This document shows positions 6,369-23,666 of a stretch of 47,766 nt of DNA, piece after piece. The notes beneath the pieces were generated by a model. The model ran no database searches, had not been told where the DNA came from, and saw only the letters and a list, made by a program, of their open reading frames with translations. The stretch spans positions 1 through 47,766 of the forward strand of contig JAEUTS010000295.1 in assembly GCA_016787005.1 (NCBI GenBank), given 5' to 3'. Both the position numbers and the translations under genes were made by a program. This stretch comes from Bacteroidia bacterium (GTDB lineage: Bacteria > Bacteroidota > Bacteroidia > JABDFU01). Positions within the stretch are counted from its first letter, which is position 1, and the number at the start of each line of letters is the position of its first letter.

Positions 6369-6404
6369 ATACTATATGCTTTATTCGGTAATTGCATGTC
6401 GTAT

Positions 6405-6412: not shown

Positions 6413-6459
6413 ATGTAAAGTCTTATAAAATGTGAACAGGATATTCCGGGTTTGCCCTC

Positions 6460-7485: not shown

Positions 7486-7517
7486 ATCCTTTAATTAAAT
7501 AGAAATAAAAAAAATGT

Positions 7518-8267: not shown

Positions 8268-8868
8268 TGATTTCAAAAAAGGATTTTAACAGCTGTAGTC
8301 CGGCACTTTGGCTTTTCTCCGGATGAAATTGTGTGCCAAAAATATTTTCTTTTTGTACACTTGAAACAATATCAATTCCGTAGTTTACTGTGGAAGAGAC
8401 CAGAGCGGGATCTTTAACTTTCAAATGGTAACTGTGAATAAAATAAAAATCCAAACTGGTTAGATCAGAAAAATATCGGGAGTTGATAACATTAACAGAA
8501 TTCCAGCCTAGGTGGGGAATTCTTTTTTCTTTTGTATTAATTTTAATTACTTCTCCTTTAATCCATCCCATGCCATTGGTTTCATGAGGCTCCGAGCCTT
8601 TCTGAGCGAGTAATTGCATTCCTAAACAAATTCCCAAAAAAGGTTTTTTTTTATTAATTACCTGATCAGTAAGCAAATCAACCAGGCCATATTTTTTAAG
8701 GTTATTCATCCCCTGGCTAAAAGAACCCACACCGGGTAAAATAATATATCCGGATTTATTAATTATGTCGGAATTATTGGAAATAACATTTTCAATATTC
8801 AAAAAGTTTAAGGCTTTTTGAACGGAGGCAACATTGCCCATTCCATAATCAATTATTACGGCTGCCAC
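8260..8868 (-). CDS. HisH-like class-I glutamine amidotransferase paralogue (WbuY type)
   Basis: VIIDYGMGN, ILPGVGSF, nucleophile-elbow GICLGMQLL and QFHPEKS. Confidence 0.85.
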   Translation of the reverse strand: MAAVIIDYGMGNVASVQKALNFLNIENVISNNSDIINKSGYIILPGVGSFSQGMNNLKKYGLVDLLTDQVINKKKPFLGICLGMQLLAQKGSEPHETNGMGWIKGEVIKINTKEKRIPHLGWNSVNVINSRYFSDLTSLDFYFIHSYHLKVKDPALVSSTVNYGIDIVSSVQKENIFGTQFHPEKSQSAGLQLLKSFFEINA

Positions 8869-8869
8869 T

Positions 8870-10021
8870 TTACTTTATTTCGAAATTGCGAATCAGGCTT
8901 CCGTCAGTCTGCCTGCAGAAAGTTCCATCCGGATTTTTTTTGAATAAAACAGTATTGGTGTAGGAATCAATAACAGAGTCTATTTCATCTTTGGTTAAAC
9001 CGGAATATGTTATAAAGTCGGCAACTGCCTTATGTGGGTATTTTCCGTCATATTTATTTATGAGTTCCAATCCTTTAGCCCGGGATAAACGTTTATTGCG
9101 GATATCAATACATACATGATCTGTAGCTCTGCCAAAACCATATTTTACATATTTTAGGTAATCGTGAAGGCCGACAAGTTTTTCATCCAGGTTTTCATAA
9201 TTCGTATAGGTGCCTTCAACTGGTCCATCCTCTTTTACTTTAAAACCATGTCTTTTCACTATTTCCAGTTGTTTTCGTGCATCCCAAAAAAAGTAATGTC
9301 CAAGAAAAATTCCGATAACACCAAGTTTTTTTATTTCCTCATCGGAAGGATAAAAATAGGGAGTAAGTTCCTTTTCAGTAATATCGTCAACACCGATCAT
9401 GTCCTGTATCCTGTATCCCAATAATCCACCAAACTCTTCGAGCCATTTTCGATTAATCACATTATTTTGAAAGGTTTCTAAGGGTCCGCCATATTCGAGT
9501 TCAGGATTTTCTCCCCACACTACTAATTTAATACCAAACTTTAGGGCGATCATGGTAGGTATGGTAAATATTCCAACATGGTTTGGCCACATTTCATCCC
9601 CAACTCGTTTAAATCCTTCAATGACCATTTTTTTGTAAACCTGGTGATTTTTTTTAAAATGGATAAGATCCATACCCATCTCGCATAAATTATCAAGATT
9701 CTGCTGGCCTATATCAGTAATTGCTGTTGTTTCGAAACATACCAGCAATGGATTGAGTCCGCAAACATACTTCATAAAATAGGCCTGGTAAGTACTGTCT
9801 TTTCCTCCACTTACAGGGATAAGGCAGTCATACCCGATTTCACCCTGAGGAAGTTTCAGTTTGTTGACTATCTCGTAAAAATCTTTTTCCCGCTGTTTCC
9901 AGTCAATTCCCCTGTTTTTATGTTCTGCCCCAATGCAGGCGCTGCAAACCCCATTTTCATCGAAATGAAGATCTGGTTTGGTTTCGGGGTAGAAGCATTT
10001 TGTACAATATTTTATTTCCAT
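8870..10021 (-). CDS. N-acetyl-sugar amidotransferase, PP-loop ATP-pyrophosphatase (WbuX/PseA type)
   Basis: N-terminal Cys cluster (CTKCFYPETKP...CSAC) and PP-loop IPVSGGKDSTYQ. Immediately upstream of the HisH/HisF paralogues, as in acetimidoyl-sugar loci. Confidence 0.8.
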   Translation of the reverse strand: MEIKYCTKCFYPETKPDLHFDENGVCSACIGAEHKNRGIDWKQREKDFYEIVNKLKLPQGEIGYDCLIPVSGGKDSTYQAYFMKYVCGLNPLLVCFETTAITDIGQQNLDNLCEMGMDLIHFKKNHQVYKKMVIEGFKRVGDEMWPNHVGIFTIPTMIALKFGIKLVVWGENPELEYGGPLETFQNNVINRKWLEEFGGLLGYRIQDMIGVDDITEKELTPYFYPSDEEIKKLGVIGIFLGHYFFWDARKQLEIVKRHGFKVKEDGPVEGTYTNYENLDEKLVGLHDYLKYVKYGFGRATDHVCIDIRNKRLSRAKGLELINKYDGKYPHKAVADFITYSGLTKDEIDSVIDSYTNTVLFKKNPDGTFCRQTDGSLIRNFEIK

Positions 10022-10030
10022 ATCTTCTTC

Positions 10031-10669
10031 TTATTTCTCAAGCAAATACATACAGTCTTTATTGTCGTTATGAAGATACTTGTAAAATTCTTTTTTCATG
10101 AGTTTAAGTTGCGGAAATAAACTTTGAAAAATTCCGGCAAAGTCTGCTTTCCACAAAAAATCTTTATTCCCTCTATAATCTATAGCAGATGTTTTTTCAT
10201 CATAATATTCAAAGCCCCATATATATTTTTTGCTGCAACGTACCATTTCCGACATAATTAACTTATGATTTTCGGGAGCAATGTGAATTAAAACACCTGA
10301 TGTAAAGACAAGATCAAAATAGGAATCTTTAAAAGGGATATCATATCCCGAACCTTGTAGGATGTTTATATTTTTGGTGTGTTGCTTGGCAATTTCAACA
10401 GCATCTTGCTGAAGTTCAATTCCATAAAGGTTTTCAAAGCCCATTCGTTGAAGCCCGCTAAGCTGTAAACCAATGTTTGATCCCACTTCAAGTATTTTAA
10501 TGTTTTTAGGCAGTTCACCAATGAATTGTTTATTCATTTCAGGTTTTGTAATACCCCAGGTGTTAAGGTAAGTCTGATCCCATGCAGAGGGGTCAAATGT
10601 ATTTCTATGAGTGTATTCGCGACCAAATTCCCCTTTCCAGAACTCTGATTGTTTATTTAACATATTCAT
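10031..10669 (-). CDS. Class-I SAM methyltransferase (pseudaminic-acid-biosynthesis-associated methylase type)
   Basis: FWKGEFGREYTHRN N-terminus and motif I ILEVGSNIGLQL. First gene of the Pse operon. Confidence 0.65.
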   Translation of the reverse strand: MNMLNKQSEFWKGEFGREYTHRNTFDPSAWDQTYLNTWGITKPEMNKQFIGELPKNIKILEVGSNIGLQLSGLQRMGFENLYGIELQQDAVEIAKQHTKNINILQGSGYDIPFKDSYFDLVFTSGVLIHIAPENHKLIMSEMVRCSKKYIWGFEYYDEKTSAIDYRGNKDFLWKADFAGIFQSLFPQLKLMKKEFYKYLHNDNKDCMYLLEK

Positions 10670-10783
10670 TTATTTGTGAAAGATATATTCAGGTGTTTAA
10701 TGTTTTTATTCAATAATGATAGTTTTAAAACAAAATCGAAAAAGGACTAATAGTTAGGTTAATCGAATCTATTTAGGCAAAAC

Positions 10784-10802
10784 AAAATATTCACAAATAT
10801 AA
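10784..10802 (-). promoter_or_regulatory. Candidate promoter of the Pse operon (TAtaTTTG -7 box inside a 19-nt block shared with the divergent promoter)
   Basis: The minus strand reads ttatatttgtgaatatttt. The -7 box is at 10794-10801. About 125 nt upstream of the ATG at 10669. Confidence 0.4.
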
Positions 10803-11032
10803 CGTAATTACTATTCTGAAGCGTTTTTTTTGATCATAAATTTTGGCTTCATTGTATAATCTATTTTATACAAGGTGTGTTCGGGAAAGAAAATTATCGT
10901 GTTTGGAAATATGTAGCTTCATAGATTTAGTTTTTGTTTGTCAGATAAGGTTTTTCTGTGCAAATTTTGTTTTTATTGGATTTGACTTGTATCAAAGATT
11001 ATGATTCTAATGTATTTTAATGCACGATAAGA

Positions 11033-11051
11033 TTATATTTGTGAGTAGTTT
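11033..11051 (+). promoter_or_regulatory. Candidate promoter of the plus-strand glycan operon (TAtaTTTG -7 box)
   Basis: ttatatttgtgagtagttt is 17/19 identical to the inverted copy at 10784-10802. The -7 box is at 11034-11041. About 160 nt upstream of the ATG at 11205. Confidence 0.4.
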
Positions 11052-11204
11052 TGTGTTTTGTATGAATGTTAGTCATGGATGGCAATAATTAAATTAATCA
11101 GAATAAGTACCTTGTATTTTTCTTTAAGAGGCTTTGTGTTTTTGATGTTTCGAATACTTTCAACAGATAAACCCGTCCATGAAAATTAGATAATCGGGGA
11201 GCAT

Positions 11205-11909
11205 ATGAATATAAAGATAAAAAATCAGCATTCTTTATCACTTATAATACCTGCCTATAATGAAGAGGAAAGCATTGAAGCGGCTGTACTTGTCAATATT
11301 GAAGTATTACAAAGGGCTGAAATTGAATTTGAAATTATTATTATTGACGACGGAAGTAAGGATAAAACGAAAGGGATTATAGAGGAAAAGTTCGCCGGTA
11401 AACCCAATTTGATTTTCTTTTCCAAACCCAATGGTGGTTTTGGTAGTGCAGTCAGAAAAGGAATAGAACTATCTTCACGTGATTATGTGATGTTTGTTCC
11501 GGTTGATAGTCCTTTGAACGAAAATACACTTAGTTCATTTCTTATGCATGCAAACAAAGCTGACATTATAGTTAGTTATCGAATGGAAAGAAAAGGGTAT
11601 TCAAATAGAATGAAGGTAAATTCTTCAATTTATCATAAATTGATTTCATTTTTATTTGGCTTATCTCTAAAGGATTATAATTGGATACATCTGTATAACA
11701 GAAAAATTTTCGATAAAATAACTATTGAGAACGGGAGAATTTTTATGCTTGCTGAGGTTTTGATCAAAGCAAAACGTTTAGGGTATACGTTTTATGAATT
11801 TCCGATTGAAATGGAGGAGCGGACATCGGGAGACAGAACGGCGGCCTCGTATAAAGCTGCATTACAAACATTTTTTGATACAATTAGATTTTTTTTTAAA
11901 AGAAAATAG
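11205..11909 (+). CDS. GT2-family glycosyltransferase, polyprenyl-phosphate sugar synthase type (ArnC/DPM1-like)
   Basis: [14 protein letters not shown]...[11 protein letters not shown]...VPVDSP. Its size (234 aa) fits the ArnC/GtrB/DPM1-like subgroup. Confidence 0.8.
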
Positions 11910-11911
11910 AA

Positions 11912-13018
11912 ATGAAAATTCAATTTGTTGATATACAGCGACAGTATAGAAATTATAAAGGAGAGTTGCTTACTGCTATTGAGAGGGTTTTAGAGAATGG
12001 AAATTTCATCATGGGCAGTGAAGTTCAGCAGTTTGAAAAAGAATTTGCAGTCTATAATGGTTGTAAATATGCAATTGGAGTGGATTCCGGTACCTCGGCG
12101 TTGGAGTTATCTGTTCTAGCGATTGGGATTAAGGAAAGTGATGAAGTAATTACAGTTCCCAATAGTTTTGTTTCTACTGCATTTTCAATTTCGGAAGCTG
12201 GTGCAAATGTAAAATTTGTAGATGTTGATGAAAGAACTCAGCTTATGAATATTTCCCTAATAGAAAATGCGATCACTAAGAAAACGAAGGCAATTATTCC
12301 TGTTCATCTTTGTGGACAAATGGTCAACATGCCCCCATTATTGGAAATTGCAAAAAAATATAATTTAAAGATTGTTGAAGATGCATGCCAGGCACATGGG
12401 GCATTGCAAAATGGTAAAAGAGCCGGAACGATTGGGGACTTAGGTTGTTTTAGTTTTTATCCGGGGAAAAATCTAGGAGCTTATGGAGATGCAGGAGCAA
12501 TTACTACGAATGATGAATTACTATACAATAAATTGACCCTATTAAGAAATTATGGATCTTCGAAAAAATATTATCATGAATTCAAAGGAAGAAACGCAAG
12601 GTTAGATACAATACAGGCCGCAGTTCTGAATGTTAAGCTAAAGTACCTAGAGGCATGGAATAAGAGAAGAAATGAGTTGGCTCAATTATATATGAAAGGT
12701 TTGCAAAATGTTGGTGATTTAACCTTGCCATTTATTGAAAAGGATAATTTCTCAAACTTTCACTTATTTCCTGTCAGAACAAAAAAGAGAGATTTACTGT
12801 TTGATTTTCTTACAAGTCAGGACATCCAGGTTGTTATTCATTATCCAATCCCAATACATTTGCAAAATGCGTATGATGAATTAAAACTGAAAAGGGGAGT
12901 TTTTCCCGTAACAGAAATGTTGGCCGATGAATCTATTTCATTGCCAATTCATCCCGAAATGACTGAAGACGAAGTTGATTTCGTAATAACTAAGACCAGG
13001 GAATTTTTTAATCAGTGA
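11912..13018 (+). CDS. DegT/DnrJ/EryC1/StrS-family NDP-sugar aminotransferase (ArnB/FdtB-like)
   Basis: [42 protein letters not shown]...[15 protein letters not shown] (catalytic Lys context). Confidence 0.85.
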
Positions 13019-13137
13019 TTTGTGAAAATAATGAGATATTACAACTTGGCTAGTTTGAATAGGATGGTAGTGAGGACTGGCGGTTTTTGGGTCATTTTTT
13101 TTAGGTGTTTGATCAATAAAATGTAAATTATATATGA

Positions 13138-13650
13138 ATGAATATAATTAAATCAATATTGCCGGCAGATATAGAGCTCGGCAGCTTTGTTATTATCCAG
13201 GAAAATGTAAGTATTGGATCGGGTGTTAAGGTTTGCAGCCATGTTAATTTATATGGATGCACTATTTCTGATAGTTGTATGATTGGACCTTTTGTTGAAA
13301 TTCAGAATGATGTATTTATAGGCCAACGAACCCGGATAAGTTCTCATACTTTTGTTTGCTCGCATGTTAATTTTGAAGTTGATTGTTTTATTGGGCATGG
13401 GGTTACATTTATCAACGATACTTTTAGTAATGACAAAGTGAATTATAATTCTAAAAACCTGGGAAGGACATATATTGGGAAGAATGTAATAATTGGTTCG
13501 AATGCTACAATTTTTCCGGTTAAGATCGCGGATAATTGTATTATAGGAGCAGGATCGGTTGTGACAAAGGATGTTCCTGAAAATGCGGTTGTCGCTGGGA
13601 ATCCGGCAAAAATAATCAGGTATAGAGGCGCGACAATAGATAAAAAATAA
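13138..13650 (+). CDS. Left-handed beta-helix (hexapeptide-repeat) sugar N-acetyltransferase
   Basis: Repeated [LIV]-G-x4 hexapeptides (IGSGVKV, IGPFVEI, IGKNVIIGSNATI, IGAGSVV) ending in VVAGNPAKII. Confidence 0.8.
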   Translation: MNIIKSILPADIELGSFVIIQENVSIGSGVKVCSHVNLYGCTISDSCMIGPFVEIQNDVFIGQRTRISSHTFVCSHVNFEVDCFIGHGVTFINDTFSNDKVNYNSKNLGRTYIGKNVIIGSNATIFPVKIADNCIIGAGSVVTKDVPENAVVAGNPAKIIRYRGATIDKK

Positions 13651-13661
13651 ATTATTAAAGC

Positions 13662-14393
13662 GTGAGTAATTATATACCAAACCTAAAAGCTCTTTTTGTA
13701 AATCCATATTATATAATTCGCAGGGGGCTGTATTATAATATTAAAGATCTCGCCCCATCTCTTACCGGTCGTTTGCTGGATTTTGGTTGTGGTTCAAAAC
13801 CGTATAAACATTTTTTTTCAGTCGCTGAATATATTGGTGTTGATATGGTTAACCCGGCATATACAAAGCAGAGTGAAAATATTGATTATTTTATTAAGGA
13901 CGGGAAAATACCTTTTCCTGATAACTATTTTGATTCGGTTTTGTGTACAGAAGTTTTGGAACACGTATTTTCAATAGACGAAGTTTTAACAGAAATATCC
14001 AGGGTTTTAAAACCTAATGGAAGATTTTTAATTACTCTTCCTTTTGTATGGGAGGAACATGAGATGCCATATGATTTTGCCAGGTATTCTTCCGTTGCAC
14101 TAATTACTATTTTGAGGAAGCATGGTTTTGAGGTTATTGAACACAGGAAAATCGGTAACTCATTCGAAACTATTTACCAGTTGAAAGTTATGGAAGTTTA
14201 TTATTGGCTTGTTCGTTGTATATCTAATATTTTCATTAGGAAAAAAATTGGTCTTATCCTTATTCCGCTGTATAATTTAAGGGCTATAATTATGGGGAAA
14301 TTATTCTCTAAGAATAATCCTAATTTATATCTGAACAATGTAATTTTATCTTCCAAAATTGGCAATCTCTCAAAGGAAGTCTCTAAACGATAG
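13662..14393 (+). CDS. Class-I SAM-dependent methyltransferase
   Basis: Motif I LLDFGCGSKPY, post-I GVDM, and VLCTEVLEHV...LKPNGRFLIT. Confidence 0.75.
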   Translation: MSNYIPNLKALFVNPYYIIRRGLYYNIKDLAPSLTGRLLDFGCGSKPYKHFFSVAEYIGVDMVNPAYTKQSENIDYFIKDGKIPFPDNYFDSVLCTEVLEHVFSIDEVLTEISRVLKPNGRFLITLPFVWEEHEMPYDFARYSSVALITILRKHGFEVIEHRKIGNSFETIYQLKVMEVYYWLVRCISNIFIRKKIGLILIPLYNLRAIIMGKLFSKNNPNLYLNNVILSSKIGNLSKEVSKR

Positions 14394-14615
14394 GCCCTAT
14401 ACTAAAAATTCGCTAAAAACAAAGAACAGATCTACTCCGATCCAGCTTATGTTTTTAGTAAATTGAAAGAGAGGTTGGCGTCTTAATAAAACAAGAATTA
14501 TTGCCAAGCCCCTTAAAAAATCAAGTTCTCTAAGTCTATTATTCTGTAAAATCACAATTGCTTCGTGTAATAATTAACGAATATAATTAAGTTTTTTAAC
14601 GTAACTTCGACCCTT

Positions 14616-14623
14616 TAAATTTG
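14616..14623 (+). promoter_or_regulatory. Candidate internal -7 box TAaaTTTG
   Basis: taaatttg lies 50 nt upstream of the ATG at 14673, inside a 279-bp intra-cluster gap. Confidence 0.35.
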
Positions 14624-14672
14624 GTGTATTATATGTAATTGTATTTTTTTAATAATTAAGGTAACACAATCA

Positions 14673-15743
14673 ATGGATTCAAAATACGCATCGAAAATAA
14701 TTTCAGGTGATGTAAGTGATCTTGCGGGATCTTTAGCTGAATATAAAGAGAAGTTTGAGGGCAAATGTTTTTTAATAACAGGTGCCGGTGGTTTCCTGGG
14801 AAAGTATTTGGTTTATTTGCTACGGTATATGAATGAAAATATACTGACTAAACCTTGTAAAGGATTGTTTTTGGATAATTTTGTTATAGGTGATGAAGAA
14901 GAAATGGTTTCTGACGGCAATTTGATTTTTATCCGTCATAACGTAATTGAGCCGTTTGAAACAGATCAAAATATTGATTATATTATTCATGCGGCTGGTA
15001 TTGCCTCCCCGCTTTATTATACAAAATTTCCCATTGAGACAATGGATGTGACCACTATTGGTACAAGGAATATGTTAGAACTTGCACGGGCAAAAAATGT
15101 TAAAGGTTTTTTATTTACAAGTTCAAGTGAGGTTTACGGTGATCCTGATGATAAGTTTGTTCCAACTCCTGAAACTTACAACGGAAATGTATCTATTTAC
15201 GGCCCGAGAGCATGCTATGATGAATCAAAGCGTTTCGCTGAAATTCTATGCTTGAGTTTTTATAGGGTTTATGATGTACCCGTTAAAATTGTTCGCTATT
15301 TTAATGTATTTGGTCCCGGAATGCGATTAAATGATTACAGGGTGATACCAAATTTTATTGAACATGCACTAAGAAAGGAGGCCCTTACTATTCATGGTAA
15401 TGGTGAGAATACAAGATCATATTGCTACATAAATGATGCATTAGAGGCAACTTTAAAATTGCTTTTCTCAATTGTAAATGGTGAGGCATTTAATATAGGA
15501 AATCCCGCCCTTGAAATTTCTCTAAATGACCTGGGTAAGGCCGTTCAGGAGTTATTTGATTATCCTGTAAGAATAAATCATGTCCCTCCTCCTCATGCCG
15601 TTTATGCAAGTAGTGACCCTAAAAGGCGTTGTCCGGATATTTCGAAGATTCGTTCGGTTATTCAGTATAATCCCAGGTATGATCTTAAAAAGGGTTTGGG
15701 AAGAACAATTGATTGGTATAAGGAATTTTTAAAAATTTCATAA
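14673..15743 (+). CDS. Extended-SDR NAD-dependent UDP-glucuronate decarboxylase-like enzyme (UXS / ArnA C-domain-like)
   Basis: FLITGAGGFLGKYL, SSSEVYGDP and YDESKRFAE. The YDE[GS]KR form of YxxxK is typical of UXS-type decarboxylases. Confidence 0.75.
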   Translation: MDSKYASKIISGDVSDLAGSLAEYKEKFEGKCFLITGAGGFLGKYLVYLLRYMNENILTKPCKGLFLDNFVIGDEEEMVSDGNLIFIRHNVIEPFETDQNIDYIIHAAGIASPLYYTKFPIETMDVTTIGTRNMLELARAKNVKGFLFTSSSEVYGDPDDKFVPTPETYNGNVSIYGPRACYDESKRFAEILCLSFYRVYDVPVKIVRYFNVFGPGMRLNDYRVIPNFIEHALRKEALTIHGNGENTRSYCYINDALEATLKLLFSIVNGEAFNIGNPALEISLNDLGKAVQELFDYPVRINHVPPPHAVYASSDPKRRCPDISKIRSVIQYNPRYDLKKGLGRTIDWYKEFLKIS

Positions 15744-15758
15744 CGAAAAGTATATTTC

Positions 15759-16166
15759 ATGGAAACACTAAAACACATTGGTCCGGCATTTATTGATGAC
15801 AGAGGTGCAATTACAAATGTTTTTGAAGGAACGATAGAGCATATTGCCCTTATATCTTCAAAAAAAGGCACTGTCAGAGCGAATCATTTTCATAAGAACA
15901 TACATCAATATATTTATTTGGTAAGTGGCGCTTATGAGGCTCATTGTTGTGAAGTAAACAACCCGGGAAGGAAACAGGTTCTTAAAGTATTGCCGGGCGA
16001 TATTGTTGATACACCGCCAATGATTGCTCATGCTCAAAAATTTACGGAAGACTCCGTATTTATAGCCCTTTCAACCAGGAAGCGCTCGGAAGGGAAGTAT
16101 GAAGAGGACACTACTGCTTTTCCGGTTATTGAAGGCGGATATATCAATCAGCAATTGGTCAAATAG
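15759..16166 (+). CDS. Small cupin-fold sugar-nucleotide isomerase/epimerase (FdtA/WxcM/RmlC-related)
   Basis: 135 aa with FIDDRGAITNVFEG...VRANHFHK...YLVSG. Size and His pattern fit the cupins found in NDP-keto-sugar pathways. The exact activity is unknown. Confidence 0.55.
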   Translation: METLKHIGPAFIDDRGAITNVFEGTIEHIALISSKKGTVRANHFHKNIHQYIYLVSGAYEAHCCEVNNPGRKQVLKVLPGDIVDTPPMIAHAQKFTEDSVFIALSTRKRSEGKYEEDTTAFPVIEGGYINQQLVK

Positions 16167-16230
16167 CCGAATGGAATATAATAAATCTCCTTTTTTACTC
16201 CCTTTGCTCTATTTTATTTAAAACCAATAT

Positions 16231-17472
16231 ATGGAACAGTATAAAAAAATAGCATGTAGATATTGTGATGCTAAACTGCCAAATGCAATATTAGAATTGG
16301 GAAGTATGGCACTTGCAAATTCATTTTTGACTAAAGATCAGGAAAACGAAAAAGAATTTGAATGCCCCCTAAGTATTACGCGCTGTACGAATTGTGGTTT
16401 AGTTCAACTTACACATGTCGTACCGGCCGATTTGATGTTCTCTAACTATTTGTATGTAAGTTCCACTACTGCAACATTTAGAAAACATTTTGCAGATTAT
16501 GCCAGATCAATGAAAGAAAAGTCAATTAAGAAGGAGAATTTACTGGCTGTAGATATTGGAAGTAATGATGGACTGCTAGTTTCTTGTTTTATTAATGAAG
16601 GAATGAAAGCGGTTGGTGTTGAGCCGGCAAAGAATTTAAGTGATGATGCGAACAAAAGAGGAATTGAAACGATCAATCACTATTTTGATGAGAATACAGT
16701 CCAACAAATTATTAAAAAACATGGGAAAGCAGATATTATAACTGCTAATAATGTTTTCGCCCATATTGATAATAGTCAATCTGTTTGTAAAAATGCGTTT
16801 GACCTTATGAGTGATGATGGGATTTTTGTAATAGAATTTCCTTATCTCGTTACAATGGTAGATGAGATGCTTTTTGATATGATCTATCACGAACACCTTT
16901 CATTTATAGCATTGACACCCTTAAAATTCCTTCTTGCCAGATTTAAATTAGAGATATTTGATGTGGATATTGTTTCTTCACATGGTGGATCTTTAAGAGT
17001 TCAGATTCAAAAAATGGGAAGTAAGCATCCTATTTCAAAAAGAGTGGTTGATATGCTTAAGAGTGAACAATCGAGAGGCTTTAACGATCAGCCCATATAT
17101 CTTGATTTCGCAGAGAAAGTGTACCACGTGAAGAATAAGCTTGTAGGATTTGTAGATCAGGCAAAAAAGGAAGGAAAAACTATTAGCGGATATGGAGCAC
17201 CGGCTAAAGGTAATACACTTATTAACTTTTGTAAATTTACCCCACTTAAAATCGATTATATTGTGGATGACAATCCATTAAAGCAAAATATGCTATCGCC
17301 CGGAGCAAAGATACCCGTTGTTCCCAGTTCTTATCTTAATGACCACCCAACTGATTACGTAATTATATTTGCCTGGAATTTTGCTAAGGAGATAATTGAA
17401 AAATTACAACATTTAAAAAACAAGGGGGTAAAGTTTATTGTGCCTTTGCCTGAACCAACAATTGTGAGTTAA
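16231..17472 (+). CDS. NDP-keto-sugar C-methyltransferase family protein (Zn-ribbon + class-I MT + C-terminal C-methyltransferase domain)
   Basis: N-terminal CRYCDAKL...CTNCGLVQL Zn ribbon, then VDIGSNDG (motif I), then a C-terminal SGYGAPAKGNTLINF. This is the architecture of TylC3/CoqB-type sugar C-methyltransferases. Confidence 0.7.
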   Translation: MEQYKKIACRYCDAKLPNAILELGSMALANSFLTKDQENEKEFECPLSITRCTNCGLVQLTHVVPADLMFSNYLYVSSTTATFRKHFADYARSMKEKSIKKENLLAVDIGSNDGLLVSCFINEGMKAVGVEPAKNLSDDANKRGIETINHYFDENTVQQIIKKHGKADIITANNVFAHIDNSQSVCKNAFDLMSDDGIFVIEFPYLVTMVDEMLFDMIYHEHLSFIALTPLKFLLARFKLEIFDVDIVSSHGGSLRVQIQKMGSKHPISKRVVDMLKSEQSRGFNDQPIYLDFAEKVYHVKNKLVGFVDQAKKEGKTISGYGAPAKGNTLINFCKFTPLKIDYIVDDNPLKQNMLSPGAKIPVVPSSYLNDHPTDYVIIFAWNFAKEIIEKLQHLKNKGVKFIVPLPEPTIVS

Positions 17473-17557
17473 TATAATTGTGTTGAATTGCCCAGATTTT
17501 TAATTCCAAAGTGTCTAGATTGTAGAAATCAATAGTTTCAGACATATTTTCCAAACG

Positions 17558-19123
17558 ATGAGCCATTTATTAGAGTTTATAAAGGAAAATAGAAATGTTT
17601 TCATTATCTCGTTGTTTTCTTTAGTTACCGGGATTGCAGTAAATGAATTGAATTTGTTTGCGATAAAAAAAATGAATCCGCATAACAATGAAGTTAATAA
17701 TGCTTCAATTTATTACAACCAAACTGTTTTTTCTATAGATAACGAATACTATATCACTCCAGCTGAAAACTTTTTAAAAGGAAAGGGGTTGCGAAGGGAC
17801 CCCCCTATAGGTAATGGCAGTTATTTTAGGCGCACCCCAGGATATTCTCTTTTTTATTTAAGTTTCCGTTGTTTTGCCGATATTCCGTTGGCATTACAAT
17901 TTTTAAAATTTATCCAATTATCACTTTTTACTATTTCAATTTACTGTATTTATTTTATCACTTATTGTTTCAATAGAAACAAAATTGTAGCATTAGTTGT
18001 TGCCATGTTATACGGTTTTTCGCCATTTTTCAGCAGTTATTGCTATTATACTATTACAGAAGGACTTTCACCCTTCTTAATGATTTTCTATCTTTTTTTT
18101 CTTATAAAAGGGTATTTCGAAATCGTTCAAAAGAAAAGGCTCTTTTTTTATTGTATAGCATCATTTTTTATTGGTGTTGGAATAATGACAAGACCTATTG
18201 TTGGTATTGCTGCGATATTGTTGCCCGTATTTCTGATTAAGGAATTTTATGTTGACAAAAATAAATTCAAATTAGTAAAAGAGGTTGTCCTAATTGGATT
18301 AATTCCTCTTTTGATGATATCTGCCTGGACATTTAGGAATTATAGATTAACAGGAGAGATTGTTCCTTTGGAAAGAGTGTATGACCCGGAGACATTAGAC
18401 CGTACGAAGCCAGAATATGAAGGAATGCTGTCGTTTGTAAAATGTTGGGGTGGTGGAGGTGAGATTAACTTGTATCATCAACCCATGTATTATGCCGCCA
18501 TCAAGGGTGATACAAGTAACATTTATGTTAATAATATGATGAAAATATTTCCAGAGTATATTGTAAGTGAAGTAGGATATGCCAGGTTATTCAATATTGT
18601 TAAAAAGCAACAGTATGCATTTTCTTTACAGAAAGAATACTATGATAAATCAATTCCAATGCCTAGTGAATATTTGCCTGTTCAAATTGAAGTTAAAACA
18701 GAATATGAAAAGATTGTTGCAGAATATAAGAAAAATCACTTCTTTCGCTATTGGTTCGTATCACCATTTGCCTATTTTAAAGCAATGGTACTACATTCAA
18801 ATACATCCAATTTGTTTATATTACAGGAGCAATTCAGGGACAGGGTAATATTGAATTTTTACAGGTACTTGTTGCTCGTATTTCATCTTATTATCTACCT
18901 GACATTGTTTTTGAACATATTTATAATAAAGGACCATTTCGAAAAGGCAATATTCGTAATGCTTCCATTACTTTTTATTCTGTTTTTTTGTGTCTTTCAC
19001 AGAGAAGTGGAGCAAAGATATATGCTTCCTGTTTTGCCTTTTATGATATCCGGACTCCAATATCCATTACAGTTTTTGTGTAATTTACCTCGCTTCAGAC
19101 TTTCTTCCATGAAAGCAAAATAG
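17558..19123 (+). CDS. Polytopic GT-C-type membrane glycosyltransferase (ArnT/PMT_2, GT39/GT83-like)
   Basis: 521 aa with about 11-13 hydrophobic segments. Acidic motif (SIDNEYYITPAENF) in the first predicted external loop. Genomic association with a GT2 polyprenyl-P sugar synthase. Confidence 0.6.
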   Translation: MSHLLEFIKENRNVFIISLFSLVTGIAVNELNLFAIKKMNPHNNEVNNASIYYNQTVFSIDNEYYITPAENFLKGKGLRRDPPIGNGSYFRRTPGYSLFYLSFRCFADIPLALQFLKFIQLSLFTISIYCIYFITYCFNRNKIVALVVAMLYGFSPFFSSYCYYTITEGLSPFLMIFYLFFLIKGYFEIVQKKRLFFYCIASFFIGVGIMTRPIVGIAAILLPVFLIKEFYVDKNKFKLVKEVVLIGLIPLLMISAWTFRNYRLTGEIVPLERVYDPETLDRTKPEYEGMLSFVKCWGGGGEINLYHQPMYYAAIKGDTSNIYVNNMMKIFPEYIVSEVGYARLFNIVKKQQYAFSLQKEYYDKSIPMPSEYLPVQIEVKTEYEKIVAEYKKNHFFRYWFVSPFAYFKAMVLHSNTSNLFILQEQFRDRVILNFYRYLLLVFHLIIYLTLFLNIFIIKDHFEKAIFVMLPLLFILFFCVFHREVEQRYMLPVLPFMISGLQYPLQFLCNLPRFRLSSMKAK

Positions 19124-19841
19124 ATACGCCAAAGGGCAGGGGAATATTTAAATTTAAAAAATATCTTTCACTGGCCATAAGGTGGAATAATATTGAATCA
19201 AGAAACGATTTTTTAAATACCGTAACATCTGAACCGGAACCACCTCTTAATAATCTTGAAGGGATAAATCTGTTGATTTTACGAAAGAGATAAATGGGCA
19301 AGAAAAGGAAAAAATTAAAGTAGCTTGCGAAAATAATGTGGCCATCTTTTTTAAATAAGTTCATAAACTGATTTTTAACATATCTTCGACGATGCATATT
19401 AACTTCATCATGATTACTCCAAAGTGACATAAATGCCGGTACCGTTACGCATATTATCCCATTTTGTTTGCAGACCCTTTTCATTTCATTTACCCCTTTC
19501 GTATCATCTTCAACATGTTCAATAACATCGAATGCGCATACCAGATCAAATTCTTCATTATCGAATTTCAAATCGGTTATAGAGCAATTCACAACAGGAA
19601 TACCTAAATTATTCAATAAAAAGTCGCAACATTCTTTATCATATTCAACGGACGTCACCTTTCCAAATTGTTGAAGCATTATGGTGCTTGCTCCAGTGGC
19701 AGCACCAATATTCAGAATATTCAGATTTTTTTTCTCTTTTAATAATGTAGAAAGATGTGATAGGATTATTTTCTTTCTTGCCAAAAACCACCAGTGTTCT
19801 CTTTCGAACGTACTATATTCATTGTAATAATCTCTTGTCAT
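19095..19841 (-). CDS. Class-I SAM-dependent methyltransferase with hydrophobic C-terminal segment
   Basis: ILNIGAATGAST (motif I), FDLVCAFDVIEHVEDD, and a C-terminal IIFASYFNFFLFLPIYLF helix. Confidence 0.75.
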   Translation of the reverse strand: MTRDYYNEYSTFEREHWWFLARKKIILSHLSTLLKEKKNLNILNIGAATGASTIMLQQFGKVTSVEYDKECCDFLLNNLGIPVVNCSITDLKFDNEEFDLVCAFDVIEHVEDDTKGVNEMKRVCKQNGIICVTVPAFMSLWSNHDEVNMHRRRYVKNQFMNLFKKDGHIIFASYFNFFLFLPIYLFRKINRFIPSRLLRGGSGSDVTVFKKSFLDSILFHLMASERYFLNLNIPLPFGVSILLSWKKV

Positions 19842-19846
19842 GTATG

Positions 19847-20728
19847 TTAAGTAAAGCGTTTATTTTTATGCTCTTTTTTAAAATAATCTTCAATTTGAAT
19901 ACCCGAACAACTAAGTCCGGTTTCTTTTAATGAATATAATCTGGGTATCTGATCAGGGACGATTTTGGCGTTTATTTGGGAAAATTCAAGGAGCCATTTT
20001 ATAATAAACATTAAAAATTTAGGAATTGGTATGATAAATATATATTTATTAAGTAAAGTGCTTATTTTTTTTATAAGTTCATAATTGGAAAATCCTTGCA
20101 ACCCGTTAATTGTGATCACCTTTTTTTCATAAGAATGATCAAATATCAATTCGTAGATTGCCTGAGCTGCATCAATATAGAAAATCGGGAATAATTTACT
20201 TTTTACATTTATTGGACATAGTATAATCTTTTTTTGTTCAACATCATGAATTAGTTTATCAATACCCTCATTTTTATTACTTCCATAAATTTCGGATGGC
20301 CTTATTATGAGCCAATGGTCAAAATTATTCTTCAGATAGTCTTCGGCTTGTAATTTAGATAGTCCATAGTCCCCACTTTTATTCCCGGCTACCCTTGAGC
20401 TTATAAAAATAAATGTGTGTACGTTATTCCCCTTTGCGGCATCAACAAGGTTTATCGTGCCTTGCAGGTTAACTTTAAAATAATCTGCTGTATTTCGTGT
20501 GTGTGTGATTGCTGCCGCATGAATAATACTATCTATCTTTTTATCTTGTATAATATTATGAATAAATACCTGGTCATTTATGTCACCAATCAATACTTCA
20601 ATATTTAAACCATCTATCTTTGATATATTACGTGATATTCCGAAAACTCTGAATTTACTCCTGTCAATTTTTTTAATTAACTCCTGCATTAATGCAGATG
20701 ATGCACCGGTAATTAAAACATTTTGCAC
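19847..20728 (-). CDS. NAD-dependent epimerase/dehydratase-family SDR
   Basis: NVLITGASSALMQELI, IIHAAA and YGLSKLQAE (YxxxK). Confidence 0.75.
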   Translation of the reverse strand: MQNVLITGASSALMQELIKKIDRSKFRVFGISRNISKIDGLNIEVLIGDINDQVFIHNIIQDKKIDSIIHAAAITHTRNTADYFKVNLQGTINLVDAAKGNNVHTFIFISSRVAGNKSGDYGLSKLQAEDYLKNNFDHWLIIRPSEIYGSNKNEGIDKLIHDVEQKKIILCPINVKSKLFPIFYIDAAQAIYELIFDHSYEKKVITINGLQGFSNYELIKKISTLLNKYIFIIPIPKFLMFIIKWLLEFSQINAKIVPDQIPRLYSLKETGLSCSGIQIEDYFKKEHKNKRFT

Positions 20729-20733
20729 TGTGT

Positions 20734-21450
20734 TTATTTTTTAATGTAAAATTCTTTAATTCTAAAGACAATTAAGTTTTTTGTAAACTCAAATACAGCA
20801 CCTATTTTCACAAATGAACTTCTCTTAATGTCGTAAAATTGTATTGGGAATTCAGCAATTTTCATTTTATATCTCCGTACGTTTATCATTATTTCTGCGT
20901 CAATGAACCAATCAGTTGAATATAGTTGCATCTTATTCAGCGCTACTCTGCGTATTATTTTGGGCTTTGAATTAATGTCCTTGCTTGCCAATGAGGGGAA
21001 TAATAGCTGAAACAGAAAGTTGTATGTTTTTGATATTAAAACACGATATGGTCCGTCAAATCTTTTTTTACGGTACGTCTTAACTAAATCAAGATTTTGA
21101 GACTTAATAGTGATAAAACACTTTTCGACACTTTCAATAGGAAATTGACCATCTCCATCAATTACACAAATATATTCACCTACAGCAGCTTTGAGGCCTT
21201 CAAGCATGTCCCATCCCATCATTCCCTTTTTGGGTTTTGTTATTGCTTTAAGACGGGAGTCATGTTTGGCCAACTCTTCAACAATTTCTTTTGTGCGATC
21301 TGTAGTGCCGGGAAAGTAATTACCCACTAACACAATTTCAAAATTATCCGTTAGTTTTTCAAGTAGTAGTTTCAATTTTTCTACGAAAGGGATAATTTCT
21401 TCCTCGGCTCGATAGCATAACACTACGACAGATAATTCAATATTGCTCAT
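20734..21450 (-). CDS. GT2-family glycosyltransferase, polyprenyl-phosphate sugar synthase type
   Basis: ELSVVVLCYRAEEEI...VIDGDGQFP. I chose the ATG at 21450 (M9) over the TTG at 21474. It sits 1 nt after the upstream stop. Confidence 0.8.
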   Translation of the reverse strand: MSNIELSVVVLCYRAEEEIIPFVEKLKLLLEKLTDNFEIVLVGNYFPGTTDRTKEIVEELAKHDSRLKAITKPKKGMMGWDMLEGLKAAVGEYICVIDGDGQFPIESVEKCFITIKSQNLDLVKTYRKKRFDGPYRVLISKTYNFLFQLLFPSLASKDINSKPKIIRRVALNKMQLYSTDWFIDAEIMINVRRYKMKIAEFPIQFYDIKRSSFVKIGAVFEFTKNLIVFRIKEFYIKK

Positions 21451-21451
21451 A

Positions 21452-23440
21452 TTATTTTTTATGGAGGAGAGCAAAGCGTTCTCCGGTTCTTGAATCTTCT
21501 ATCATCGTATCGATTCGATTGGCTAAAATGGGTGGTAGTTTGGCTTGCTTACTTAATACAATAAAATTTATTTTGAATCGGTCAATAAAATTCAACTGGC
21601 TTTCTGTCATACTGATAAAGGTGTTCCCCTTTTTTTGTTTGTCAACAAATATATAAAAAACGGAGGTCTTAATAAAACTACTTTCAAGTGCTGTATCCAA
21701 TGGGTTTTTTGACAGAGGAATTTCATGTGGATTAAGACAAACTACACCTTTGTATCCTTTCATGAGTGTAAGATAATCTCCAGTTTGATCCTCTGCGGTG
21801 TATTTACTCCAAACAGTTGTATATTCTTCAGGTGCTTTTAAAAAGCATCCAATAGGATTGCTTTGCTTTGAGTTATTTAATGAGATGATATTGGATATAT
21901 ATTTTTCGTCATGAGGGCTGTTATATTCTTTAGGAAAATAGCCATATATGTTATATGCTATTAATCCCGCAAATGAAATTAATGTCAGCTGGTTTTTTTT
22001 AATAAAGTTTATTTCCTTGATAAATAATGAAATAAAAAAAACATTGGTAATAGTTGAAGATACCATAAAAAAGAGCTGAGGGTGATTGGGGTTATATTCG
22101 AAAAGGAATGATACGATAAATCCGACTATTATTATTAATAATAGTCTTAAGTGTGTATTGTTTAGAATAGAAAATAAAGACTTCTTTGTCTTAGATAATA
22201 CAACAAGTGCTAATAATAGCCAGGGAAGGTAAACAACAATAAATTTAATAGGTTGTAGAAATAACTCAATTCCTATTATTCTGAGCAGTTGTGCAATTTG
22301 CCAATCTTTATCTTTAAAAAGATTTAGAATTAAATCTTTTTCACTTGTTGAGTATACGCTTAAGTAAGTATTCCCCATGATTTTATAGAAAAGAAACAAA
22401 AACAAAAAAACAACTAAGCAGTATATTGAATTTGTAATTATAAAGCGTAAGGGAACACTTTTTTTTATAAAAACAATAAGTAGATAAAGTAAAATTCCTC
22501 CGATTATCGCAAACATCGAAGTAATTGCGAGAATAGGCAATGTTAATAATACTAAATTAGAAATGGTAGTATATTTCGATGGTTTTATAAGGATGAAAGA
22601 AATAATGACCAGATAATATGACGCAAACTTGGGGGTAAGTTCGGACATTATTCCATAGGCATATCCGTTTGCATATTCTAGATATGGAATGCCCTCTAAG
22701 GGTAATTTAATTCCATTCAAAAACAATAATCCGATCGCTATAAATTTCGCAGACAAGGTTATAGTACCGTGCGTTTGAAATAATGCAATGAGTCCGATAT
22801 AAATTATAAAATAAAAGCAGGGCGATAATATTATTGATATGCAAATAAAATTGGGTAAATGAAAAATGCTCGAGAAAAAGCCATTTAACCATAATTCAAA
22901 ATAATGATAAGGTGAATTGCCATGTACTTCTTGAAAAAAGTAATTTGTTAATCCTCCGGAATTTTCATAACCCGTTGAATAAATAGCCTCAGAAATGATA
23001 CCATAAAAATAATTATCAAGACACCTTATTTTTGCCAATAGGATACTTGAATCATAATAGTATATGGCAGAAATCGTGTATGTTATAGCGCTTGCAAGAA
23101 AAAATTCGATAATAGTTTTTCGTGCAAATAACAATTGAAAATCCTTTATAAAGGTTGAATATTTCCCTGTATTGTCTATTTTATTGGCCTTTTTTATTTC
23201 ATAAAATAAAAGTGATCCAATTACTATCAACCCTGTATTCAGTGTTTTGAAACCACATTTATAAAAGGAAATGCTGCAAGAAAGAATAATTGCTCCGGTA
23301 AAAAAACTAAAGAATACTTTCCGATAGTTGCCAGATATTTGTTTCCCAATTCCCAAAAAAAGAAGGAAGAAATATCCGATATTGAAAATAGCCATCAGAA
23401 TGGCAATATATATAATATACATTTCTATATACTGCTTCAT
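21452..23440 (-). CDS. Large polytopic membrane protein with C-terminal soluble domain (possible GT-C-like transferase or polymerase)
   Basis: 662 aa with about 14 or more hydrophobic segments over aa 1-490, then a roughly 170-aa hydrophilic tail. I saw no motif I can assign to a family. First gene of the GT2/SDR/MT operon. Confidence 0.55.
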   Translation of the reverse strand: MKQYIEMYIIYIAILMAIFNIGYFFLLFLGIGKQISGNYRKVFFSFFTGAIILSCSISFYKCGFKTLNTGLIVIGSLLFYEIKKANKIDNTGKYSTFIKDFQLLFARKTIIEFFLASAITYTISAIYYYDSSILLAKIRCLDNYFYGIISEAIYSTGYENSGGLTNYFFQEVHGNSPYHYFELWLNGFFSSIFHLPNFICISIILSPCFYFIIYIGLIALFQTHGTITLSAKFIAIGLLFLNGIKLPLEGIPYLEYANGYAYGIMSELTPKFASYYLVIISFILIKPSKYTTISNLVLLTLPILAITSMFAIIGGILLYLLIVFIKKSVPLRFIITNSIYCLVVFLFLFLFYKIMGNTYLSVYSTSEKDLILNLFKDKDWQIAQLLRIIGIELFLQPIKFIVVYLPWLLLALVVLSKTKKSLFSILNNTHLRLLLIIIVGFIVSFLFEYNPNHPQLFFMVSSTITNVFFISLFIKEINFIKKNQLTLISFAGLIAYNIYGYFPKEYNSPHDEKYISNIISLNNSKQSNPIGCFLKAPEEYTTVWSKYTAEDQTGDYLTLMKGYKGVVCLNPHEIPLSKNPLDTALESSFIKTSVFYIFVDKQKKGNTFISMTESQLNFIDRFKINFIVLSKQAKLPPILANRIDTMIEDSRTGERFALLHKK

Positions 23441-23615
23441 TGTGGGAGGTTATGGTTTGGTAATATTAATAATCTTATCAGATACATATTGTTTTGTAAT
23501 TAATTATCGCAATGGAATATATAATTAAATCCGATACAAGGGTACTCTCCTTTTTGGTGAAAATTTCAATATAGATGCTTAAATTAGTTGTGTCTATTAG
23601 CATTGAGAAATGTAT

Positions 23616-23623
23616 TACCTTTG
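23616..23623 (+). promoter_or_regulatory. Candidate -7 box TAccTTTG
   Basis: 44 nt upstream of the ATG at 23667. It lies downstream of the track ATG at 23610, which argues against that longer start. Confidence 0.4.
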
Positions 23624-23666
23624 TAAAGGTCGTGTTTTTTTTCAAAAATCCTGTTTTGTCGACTTT

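Follow-up and report, generated by a model that had tools for sequence, protein, structure and literature searches.

An operon of a Bacteroidia bacterium predicted to make a C-methyl-branched 3-acetamido sugar and to deliver it via a lipid carrier

Among the described pathways, the Arn system is the one to which the operon analyzed here was first compared. In Arn, UDP-glucuronic acid (UDP-GlcA) is decarboxylated first, amination and N-acylation follow, and in the last two steps a GT2 enzyme transfers the sugar to polyprenyl phosphate before a GT-C enzyme takes over. The operon occupies positions 11205-19123 of a 47,766-nucleotide (nt) stretch of DNA, below called the window, which is the entire contig JAEUTS010000295.1 of a metagenome-assembled genome (MAG) of a Bacteroidia bacterium. 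It comprises eight genes on the forward strand, coding for a small GT2 glycosyltransferase, a DegT-family aminotransferase, a left-handed beta-helix N-acetyltransferase, a class I methyltransferase, a UXS-like short-chain dehydrogenase/reductase (SDR), a cupin, a TylC3-type sugar C-methyltransferase and a polytopic protein with a predicted GT-C fold. The original prediction, made from the sequence alone, had read these eight same-strand genes as an Arn-like set for an N-acetylated, C-methyl-branched amino sugar. An open reading frame (ORF) listing of the window places all eight ORFs exactly where predicted, and searches against Pfam, NCBIfam and the PDB confirmed the domain proposed for every gene.

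Any likeness to Arn would be confined to the first and the last two of these steps. The operon differs from Arn in that its DegT protein is of a C-3 type and not ArnB-like, its SDR is of UXS type and not of ArnA type, acetylation would take the place of formylation, and a ketoisomerase as well as a C-methyltransferase are added. The replacement of formyl by acetyl had been predicted and agrees with our data: a hexapeptide acetyltransferase is present, the operon contains neither a formyltransferase nor a deacylase, and the only formyltransferase gene of the window (5490-6368) belongs to a nonulosonate cluster on the opposite strand. Since an N-acetyl group is stable, a deacylase would not be needed. 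A small SMR-like (ArnE/F) ORF was not found in the operon region, and neither ArnC nor ArnT has an orthologue among the operon proteins. Arn orthology of the operon was ruled out by the scores against curated models and by the ranking of PDB matches.

A closer likeness for the amine steps is found in the Fdt and Qdt pathways, in which a ketoisomerase cupin is followed by a C-3 aminotransferase and a beta-helix N-acetyltransferase. The operon has a cupin with the HxH motif, and by similarity its DegT and beta-helix proteins would be a C-3 aminotransferase and a 3-N-acetyltransferase. Fdt and Qdt start from a dTDP-6-deoxyhexose made by RmlA and RmlB, whereas the operon has a UXS-like decarboxylase and would work on a UDP-pentose; genes for a nucleoside triphosphate (NTP) transferase and a 4,6-dehydratase were not found in the window. 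The operon furthermore adds the TylC3-type C-methyltransferase, its cupin is a remote relative with an extra invariant histidine, and its GT2 is shorter and lacks transmembrane segments.

For the delivery steps, wxcK-wxcN of Xanthomonas, reportedly assigned in earlier work to the branching of the O-antigen with Fuc3NAc, likewise link a DPM1-like GT2 to the sugar genes and add the branch via a lipid carrier. Loss of WxcN leads to an unbranched rhamnan (PMC13133917). Three-component systems (Gtr; GacI/GacL; PpgS/Rv3779; GT136) pair a polyprenyl-phosphate sugar synthase with a GT-C enzyme, as is proposed for the operon, to decorate a finished glycan outside the cytoplasm; those of GT136 have been described for pentofuranose (Kelly et al. 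2024, PMC11127046). The operon differs from them by the lack of a flippase gene, by a dedicated and elaborate donor pathway of five or six enzymes and by its uncharacterized GT-C family.

The C-methyltransferase relates the operon to the antibiotic pathways of TylC3, TcaB9, KijD1 and MtmC, where enzymes of the same family, full-length and with the zinc ribbon, act on an NDP-keto-sugar. Their substrates are dTDP-2,6-dideoxy- or 2,3,6-trideoxy-4-keto-hexoses made via RmlB and 2,3-dehydratases, whereas here the enzyme is partnered by a UXS-like decarboxylase and the sugar would be destined for an envelope glycan. If the methyl group is located at C-4, the closest known skeleton is garosamine, the 3-deoxy-4-C-methyl-3-methylamino-L-arabinose of gentamicin. 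Garosamine, however, is formed once the pseudotrisaccharide is complete, through the action of GenD2, GenS2, GenN and the cobalamin radical-SAM enzyme GenD1, with 3''-oxidation and transamination followed by N-methylation and then 4''-C-methylation (PMC4340712). It carries N-methyl where the operon would place N-acetyl, and its C-methylation is not of TylC3 type at the nucleotide-sugar level. Full-text literature searches yielded neither a paper in which a sugar C-methyltransferase is combined with a UDP-4-keto-pentose nor one on the triad of SDR, cupin and C-methyltransferase, in agreement with the predicted absence of a described pathway of this composition.

We propose that the operon combines a sugar-nucleotide module with a lipid-carrier delivery pair for a C-methylated 3-acetamido sugar, an explanation to which, taken as a whole, we give about an even chance. 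The SDR, which has the catalytic residues, would oxidize and decarboxylate UDP-GlcA to a UDP-4-keto-pentose, and the cupin would shift the keto group from C-4 to C-3. Before or after this shift, the TylC3-type enzyme would methylate a carbon beside the keto group, with C-4 or C-2 of the 3-keto sugar being favored. The QdtB-like DegT protein would turn the C-3 keto group into an amine, to be acetylated by the FdtD/WlbB-like beta-helix enzyme. The expected product is a UDP-3-acetamido-3-deoxy-C-methyl-pentose with a garosamine-like skeleton. The small GT2 would load this sugar onto polyprenyl phosphate, the lipid-linked sugar would be flipped across the membrane, and the GT-C protein would attach it outside the cytoplasm, most likely to an O-antigen- or capsule-like polysaccharide as a side-branch or possibly to a glycoprotein glycan. 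The original reading thus keeps its C-methylated, N-acetylated sugar, the carrier and the GT-C transferase, while an amine at C-3 is preferred to the Arn-type amine at C-4 and a surface glycan to lipid A as the acceptor.

The sugar-nucleotide enzymes

The SDR is encoded at 14673-15743. Its best solved relative in a PDB search is human UXS1 (2b69, E 5e-56, 193 bits). The next class follows at 2.5e-32, the C-terminal domain of ArnA at about 1e-17, UAXS at 6e-17 and RmlB-type dehydratases at 1e-13 to 1e-20, and the scores against the NCBIfam models of RmlB (98 bits, cutoff 365) and ArnA (67 bits, cutoff 777) stay below the cutoffs. All hallmarks of the UXS family are present: the GxxGxxG motif (GAGGFLG at residue 37), (S/T)xE, YxxxK (YDESKR at residue 182) and the decarboxylation arginine. 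S151/E153, Y182/K186 and R319 align with T118/E120, Y147/K151 and R277 of human UXS1, residues to which roles in UXS catalysis have reportedly been assigned. With UXS far ahead and these residues kept, the predicted UXS-type decarboxylase stands. A 4,6-dehydratase, a 4-epimerase or a UDP-apiose synthase was rejected, since the E-value for UXS is better than theirs by 20–40 orders of magnitude. We propose that the SDR is a UDP-GlcA 4-oxidase/decarboxylase that supplies a UDP-4-keto-pentose; as the downstream enzymes need a keto sugar, the 4-keto product would have to be released instead of being reduced again to UDP-xylose, the product of UXS.

The SDR subfamily is large, 63-78% identical internally and set apart from canonical UXS, with 193 bits against human UXS1 and an N-terminal extension of about 30 residues. 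Together with the position of the operon beside 2-acetamido sugar and nonulosonic acid clusters, this would leave room for another uronic acid as substrate, either UDP-GlcNAcA as in UXNAcS or UDP-GalA, leading to a di-N-acetylated or a different C-methyl pentose. The UXS catalytic and carboxylate-handling residues are nevertheless kept and no positive evidence favors such a substrate, and we regard it as very improbable. A signature scan detected no Ugd gene in the window, which at first sight counts against UDP-GlcA. The signature is, however, found in only 2 of 84 triad loci, so that a local Ugd gene is uninformative on this substrate.

In nearly every locus compared, the SDR gene lies upstream of the cupin gene, which in the window codes for 135 amino acids (aa) at 15759-16166 and carries the NCBI name 'WxcM-like domain-containing protein'. 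The top fold match of its AlphaFold (AF2) model (pLDDT 92.3) is QdtA (E 1.2e-8, TM-score 0.71, root mean square deviation 2.4 Å over 128 columns), followed by the isomerase domain of FdtD, FdtA, HCAN_0198 and WlaRA. The cupin is only about 26% identical to FdtA. An hhalign comparison with canonical FdtA gave a probability of 91.5% (E 8.6e-7), aligning RANHFHK with RGxHAHK of FdtA and placing H43 and H45 on the HxH motif. From the fold matches, which are led by ketoisomerases of the same size, the cupin, for which the original prediction had proposed no role, is predicted to be a divergent FdtA/QdtA-type NDP-keto-sugar 3,4-ketoisomerase.

Some observations weigh against this assignment. The score against Pfam FdtA is 23.0 bits, exactly at the cutoff of 23, and epimerases of the RmlC/ChmJ type are interleaved among the fold matches. 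Within the cupin family H28, H43, H45 and H91 are invariant, with E60 and H62 nearly so, and canonical FdtA has no equivalent of H91. Given this extra histidine, the protein may instead act as an epimerase or depend on a metal; FdtA and QdtA have no metal site, but one is possible in the cupin. An oxalate-decarboxylase-like, Mn-dependent enzyme, the top plain PDB match (2e-6), was dismissed since profile and fold comparisons favor NDP-sugar ketoisomerases/epimerases.

The DegT protein, a pyridoxal phosphate-dependent aminotransferase of 368 aa (11912-13018; PF01041, 383 bits), is most similar to the solved structures 7b0d (2e-120), QdtB (1e-99), 7n63 (3e-97) and 5u1z (6e-91), with DesV (7e-91), WbpE (2e-73) and perosamine synthases (about 5e-52) as further relatives. 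We take QdtB, DesV, the WlaRG-type 5u1z and WbpE to be C-3 aminotransferases. By comparison, ArnB is matched at 2e-41 in the PDB and PseC-type enzymes at 7e-29, and the NCBIfam model of ArnB gives 199 bits at a cutoff of 631. The protein is also 44-47% identical to the products of DegT genes that follow FdtA in two of the loci described below (L001 and L005). The acetyltransferase (170 aa, 13138-13650; Hexapep, 65.5 bits) has the left-handed beta-helix (LbH) half of the FdtD/WxcM-like 4mzu (2e-21) and the 165-aa sugar N-acetyltransferase 7s43 (7e-18) as nearest PDB relatives, followed by WlbB (1e-14) and QdtC (1e-12); FdtD, WlbB and QdtC are 3-N-acetyltransferases. The amine is therefore most likely placed at C-3 as in Qdt and Fdt rather than at C-4 as in Arn, and the Arn analogy proposed for these steps is not supported, the nearest relatives of the DegT protein being C-3 enzymes. 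Judged by similarity, cupin, DegT and LbH proteins would form a trio of Fdt/Qdt type for a 3-acetamido sugar.

The C-methyltransferase (16231-17472) contains the zinc-ribbon domain PF08421 (66.9 bits, cutoff 31.3), a class I S-adenosylmethionine (SAM) domain and the C-terminal Methyltransf_14 domain PF08484 (181.5 bits, cutoff 23.5), with zinc-ribbon cysteines C9, C12, C52 and C55 and a YHEH motif at 219. Full-length PDB matches are the D-mycarose 3-C-methyltransferase 4rv9 (6e-86), presumably MtmC, TcaB9 (4.5e-76) and the sugar 3-C-methyltransferase 5t64 (4.5e-74), which place the enzyme in the TylC3/TcaB9/MtmC family as predicted. Its context of UXS-like SDR, ketoisomerase and C-3 aminotransferase argues for a substrate other than a dTDP-4-keto-deoxyhexose.

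The position of the methyl group is where the family background and the neighboring enzymes disagree. Known TylC3-family enzymes methylate C-3 of 4-keto sugars, and NovU methylates C-5; we know of no precedent for methylation beside a 3-keto group. Both points count against the position favored here. Spelled out, the Arn-like route of the original prediction would consist of methylation at C-3 of the UDP-4-keto-pentose, ArnB-like amination at C-4 and transfer of a 4-acetamido-4-deoxy-3-C-methyl-pentose via undecaprenyl phosphate to lipid A or core. Methylation at C-3 would be the textbook reaction of the family, and ArnT and ArnC are respectively the top structural match of the GT-C protein and the best full-length match of the GT2. 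Yet methylation of C-3 in a 4-keto sugar creates a quaternary center, by which ketoisomerization would be blocked and amination forced to C-4. This clashes with the aminotransferase and cupin assignments: the conserved HxH cupin would be left without a role, the DegT protein resembles C-3 enzymes much more strongly than ArnB, and the acetyltransferase is of the 3-N type. Moreover, the homologues of the GT-C protein reside in Fdt-type polysaccharide loci and not in lipid A contexts. We consider this route rather unlikely.

A further possibility is C-5, which is alpha to the 4-keto group and for which NovU sets a precedent. Methylation of the UDP-4-keto-pentose at C-5 would give a UDP-4-keto-6-deoxyhexose, possibly of unusual C-5 configuration, and the trio would convert it to a UDP-3-acetamido-3,6-dideoxyhexose independently of RmlA and RmlB, the genes of which are not found in the window. 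Cupin, DegT and LbH proteins would then make up a complete Fdt/Qdt-like trio, and the GT-C family elsewhere partners Fdt sets, so that an identical or nearly identical donor of Qui3NAc/Fuc3NAc type would ease the exchange of modules. The route is roundabout, however, as 4,6-dehydratases make this class of sugar in one step; triad loci such as L010 (see below) also encode an NTP-transferase and dehydratase-like SDRs, leaving no evident need for a bypass, and no precedent is known for C-methylation of the C-5 methylene of a pentose. It appears unlikely to us, if worth keeping in mind. A methyl group added to the 3-keto sugar at C-4 or C-2 would be compatible with all parts of the operon and is the most parsimonious solution on the present assignments.

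The SDR-cupin-C-methyltransferase triad in other genomes

We scanned one genome per GTDB species with a profile of the cupin. Among the 80 listed of 274 relatives, most belong to Candidatus Omnitrophota and few to Bacteroidota, and all 80 are from MAGs. Among the matches listed, copies at 38–47% identity occur in bacteria of the candidate phyla radiation, Woesearchaeota, Thaumarchaeota and proteobacteria. The triad itself persists at 40-47% identity in archaeal genomes and in those of the candidate phyla radiation. Of the 63 loci with room on both sides, 56 have a complete, contiguous triad in which the C-methyltransferase follows the cupin. A single gene separates cupin and C-methyltransferase in 54 loci, and in all but two of these it codes for a homologue of adh_short ketoreductases (52/54). 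Altogether 69 of the 84 triad loci carry this ketoreductase.

The ketoreductase is missing from every locus that has DegT and LbH genes, namely the window and L007, L008, L009 and L028. The keto intermediate would hence be either reduced or transaminated, and this mutual exclusion is the best indication of a keto sugar as the product of the triad. In the latter four loci, which are of Bacteroidota type, six genes of the window recur together at 53–76% identity. Compared with the window, GT2 proteins are 58–62%, DegT proteins 61–65%, SDRs 70–73%, cupins 70–76% and C-methyltransferases 63–67% identical, and the LbH proteins of L007, L009 and L028 are 53–63% identical. The co-conservation that the original prediction called for is thus seen, and the recurrence of six genes in four loci speaks against clustering by chance.

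The Omnitrophota version, found in L010 (10001-15171) and in most of L012-L076, has the order SDR, cupin, adh_short ketoreductase, C-methyltransferase. In L010 the module is succeeded by genes for a B12-binding radical-SAM enzyme and a further methyltransferase, and small GT2s and a 661-aa PMT-family protein flank it. The product of this variant would be a neutral sugar that may carry two methyl groups. In L009 a second TylC3-like C-methyltransferase (411 aa) is located at 15230-19745 next to an NTP-transferase, an SDR and an RmlC-like (dTDP_sugar_isom) gene, so that the glycan locus may encode two different C-methyl-branched sugars.

The triad appears to be unstudied and is present in hundreds of uncultured bacterial and archaeal genomes; literature searches on Omnitrophota glycans returned nothing relevant. 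We tentatively suggest, at somewhat less than even confidence, that it represents an unrecognized and widespread pathway from UDP-GlcA to new C-methyl-branched pentoses, of which the Bacteroidota variant makes a 3-acetamido derivative that is delivered via polyprenyl phosphate and a new GT-C family. Taken furthest, this idea would put the methyl group onto C-5 and turn the triad into a dehydratase-independent route to 6-deoxyhexoses. The interest of the operon lies mainly in the widespread sugar module that it exposes. If the pathway is as proposed, SAM-dependent C-methylation of a UDP-keto-pentose would add a new branch to the sugar chemistry of bacteria and archaea, and with enzymes 55–76% identical across barely cultured phyla, its product may be common on their cell surfaces and have gone unnoticed. 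The variants with ketoreductase and with aminotransferase plus acetyltransferase offer a natural contrast.

Proposed lipid-carrier delivery and the acceptor

The small GT2 (234 aa, 11205-11909; PF00535, 78 bits) has ArnC as its best full-length solved match. Its residues 10-225 pair with residues 9-223 of ArnC (9hwj), and the alignment with GtrB spans its residues 10-172; with ordinary Leloir GT2s, by contrast, the similarity ends after the first 100 residues or so. The NCBIfam models of ArnC, the halobacterial dolichyl-phosphate hexose transferase, AglJ and PpgS cover the full domain (residues 13-200 for PpgS), all with scores below cutoff (50.7 bits against 529 for ArnC). The predicted membership in the ArnC/DPM1 class stands in that the alignment extends across the ArnC catalytic domain; lacking transmembrane segments, however, the protein is closer to the small DPM1/PpgS type. 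From resemblance and context we propose a polyprenyl-phosphate sugar synthase of the DPM1/PpgS/ArnC/GtrB type. In the amino-variant loci the GT2 is conserved to the same degree as the sugar enzymes and always stands beside them, which fits a constant acceptor such as polyprenyl phosphate.

The last gene of the operon (17558-19123) codes for the 521-aa polytopic protein. An AF2 model calculated from 39 homologues reached a pLDDT of 93.4 and a pTM of 0.91, and its top 19 Foldseek matches are all GT-C enzymes. ArnT (5ezm) ranks first (E 2.6e-4, TM-score 0.34, 13% identity), followed by AglB/STT3, PMTs, ALG9/ALG3 and AftA, with global TM-scores of 0.3-0.43. The match to Pfam PMT_2 is weak (19.9 bits, cutoff 26.1). 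In the DNEYY motif of the first loop, D61, located after the first transmembrane segment, and Y65 are invariant among the 39 homologues, as are R92, E168, R212, R260, E485 and R487. The predicted GT-C fold with an acidic first-loop residue was thereby recovered. The protein shares the fold of ArnT and is not an ArnT orthologue; on the basis of the model we propose an extracytoplasmic transferase that uses a lipid-linked sugar. Its family forms about 60 clusters, all unnamed.

Several findings argue against delivery via a lipid monophosphate. With zero predicted transmembrane segments the GT2 is without a membrane anchor, and it has a single aspartate (PVDSP) where ArnC and GtrB have DAD. An ORF for a flippase (GtrA, SMR, MATE or Wzx-like) was found neither in 10670-23440 nor in the rest of the window. 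A small GT2 lies within 10 kb in only 22 of the 84 triad loci, and only 14 of 49 long ones have both a large polytopic protein and a small GT2 nearby; given this rarity, the lipid-carrier route does not apply universally to this sugar. The embedded membrane proteins of L007 and L009 have no Pfam match and are unrelated to the 521-aa family.

Most of these observations would suit a cytoplasmic Leloir transferase that adds the sugar to a glycan on undecaprenyl diphosphate, leaving the GT-C protein with another job as an oligosaccharyltransferase, a ligase-like enzyme or a transferase of a different sugar: the GT2 has neither transmembrane helices nor the canonical DAD, its scores against the models of polyprenyl-phosphate GT2s are all far below cutoff, a flippase is not encoded in the window, and most triad loci lack the pair within 10 kb. 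Against such a role, the similarity to ArnC continues through the interface-helix region, and in loci with differing glycan genes the conservation of the GT2 equals that of the sugar enzymes. Polyprenyl-phosphate synthases without transmembrane segments do exist, for example PpgS and human DPM1. GT2 and GT-C genes, moreover, directly adjoin each other in at least eight loci of the GT-C family. We judge a Leloir transferase to be improbable and retain transfer to polyprenyl phosphate as the proposed role of the GT2.

Homologues of the 521-aa protein are 30–47% identical in the compared loci; a metagenome scan for the family gave only 15 loci, several of them short. In ten loci, among them L001 and L003–L005, the homologue adjoins canonical FdtA, an acyltransferase, DegT and a GT2 of about 310 aa, to which the GT2 of the window is 28-31% identical. 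In four others, including L002 and L006, it adjoins FdtA and acyl-chain genes. In L002 and L006 (11562-21569), genes for FdtA, an acyl-carrier protein, KAS III, an AMP-ligase, a MaoC dehydratase/SDR, GNAT and DegT come after the GT-C gene, a set that looks like a pathway by which a 3-amino sugar would receive a custom fatty or hydroxy acid on its nitrogen. In the compared loci of the GT-C family, which carry Wzm/Wzt, Wzx or Wza/Wzc genes, neither the UXS-like SDR nor the C-methyltransferase was found. With the GT-C homologues residing in loci of O-antigen or capsular polysaccharide type, a side-branch of a polysaccharide is a likelier acceptor than the lipid A originally proposed.

In the amino-variant loci the membrane partners differ. 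L028 encodes, directly after the C-methyltransferase, a protein that scores above the Pfam PMT_2 threshold and is remotely homologous to the 521-aa family (hhalign 99%, E 4e-18). L009 has an unrelated 539-aa membrane protein plus a PMT_2 protein, and L007 an unrelated 651-aa membrane protein. The operon of the window is hence seen as a mosaic, in which a mobile sugar/GT2 module of six genes would be coupled to a GT-C enzyme that normally handles a lipid-linked 3-acylamido-3,6-dideoxyhexose. Glycan diversity would arise here when a lipid-carrier/GT-C delivery system already in place receives a different sugar-supply module. If this holds, functions would also be gained for the unnamed GT-C family and for a type of GT2 without transmembrane segments.

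Operon layout and surroundings

The spacers between the operon genes are short except for one gap of 279 nt (14394-14672) between the class I methyltransferase and SDR genes. On its opposite strand lies a 52-codon ORF (14397-14555) that resembles the N-terminus of Acyl_transf_3 O-acyltransferases: the stretch GVDLFFVFSEFLV pairs with GVDLFFCLSAYLI, residues 66-78 of the Acyl_transf_3 protein of L003 (pairwise E 0.002). A Pfam search with the 52 residues, which are too few for it, gave no match. In the sibling loci L007, L009 and L028 the DegT gene directly abuts the SDR gene, with no such gap. From this comparison the ORF is probably the relic of an acyltransferase gene that marks a rearrangement junction, where a block of GT2, DegT, LbH and methyltransferase genes was probably joined with a block of SDR, cupin, C-methyltransferase and GT-C genes. 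Scans for promoters and terminators found sites no more often than in shuffled sequence.

The class I SAM methyltransferase (Methyltransf_11, 243 aa, GTG start, 13662-14393; PF08241, 58.9 bits) stands outside the conserved set, with only partial matches of 24-36% identity in the sibling amino-variant loci. It is an accessory enzyme that may add an O- or N-methyl group to the sugar.

Upstream of the operon, on the reverse strand, a complete-looking nonulosonic-acid cluster (526-10669) contains genes for NeuB, a CMP-transferase, DegT, a GFO/IDH oxidoreductase and the formyltransferase as well as a WbuX amidotransferase with HisH/HisF-like partners and a pseudaminic-acid-associated methylase. This suggests an acetamidino- and/or N-formyl-modified, methylated nonulosonate of pseudaminic/legionaminic type. 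Convergent to the operon, a second unit (19095-23440, reverse strand) codes for a methyltransferase (248 aa), an SDR (293 aa), a PgfS/ArnC-like GT2 (246 aa) and a polytopic protein of 662 aa without Pfam match. The latter is unrelated to the 521-aa family by hhalign. It is 25% identical over 560 aa (E 1e-9) to proteins of about 677 aa in L106 (5630-7663) and L003 (7838-9874), with which it shares the motif YH(Y/F)FELW. As these homologues are located directly between the GT2 and the GT-C homologue, they appear as a recurrent partner of the 521-aa family. The functional unit may thus extend to 23440, the second unit possibly belonging to the same surface-glycan system.

Genes for cargo of the type IX secretion system (T9SS), with PKD or Laminin_G domains and a Por_Secre_tail, are located at 23610-26900 and 45629-47182 of the window. 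T9SS cargo also lies beside the blocks from FdtA to GT-C in L001 (3250-6696), L004 (5317-7716), L005 (1622-6625) and L100 (11482-14985). This hints that T9SS cargo or its anchoring glycan could be the acceptor; with at least two cargo genes in the 48 kb of the window, the adjacency may be due to chance. The rest of the window consists of housekeeping genes. G+C content is 30–38% over the glycan region (1-28000) and 40–45% in the housekeeping region (29000-42000), a contrast consistent with horizontally exchanged polysaccharide genes.

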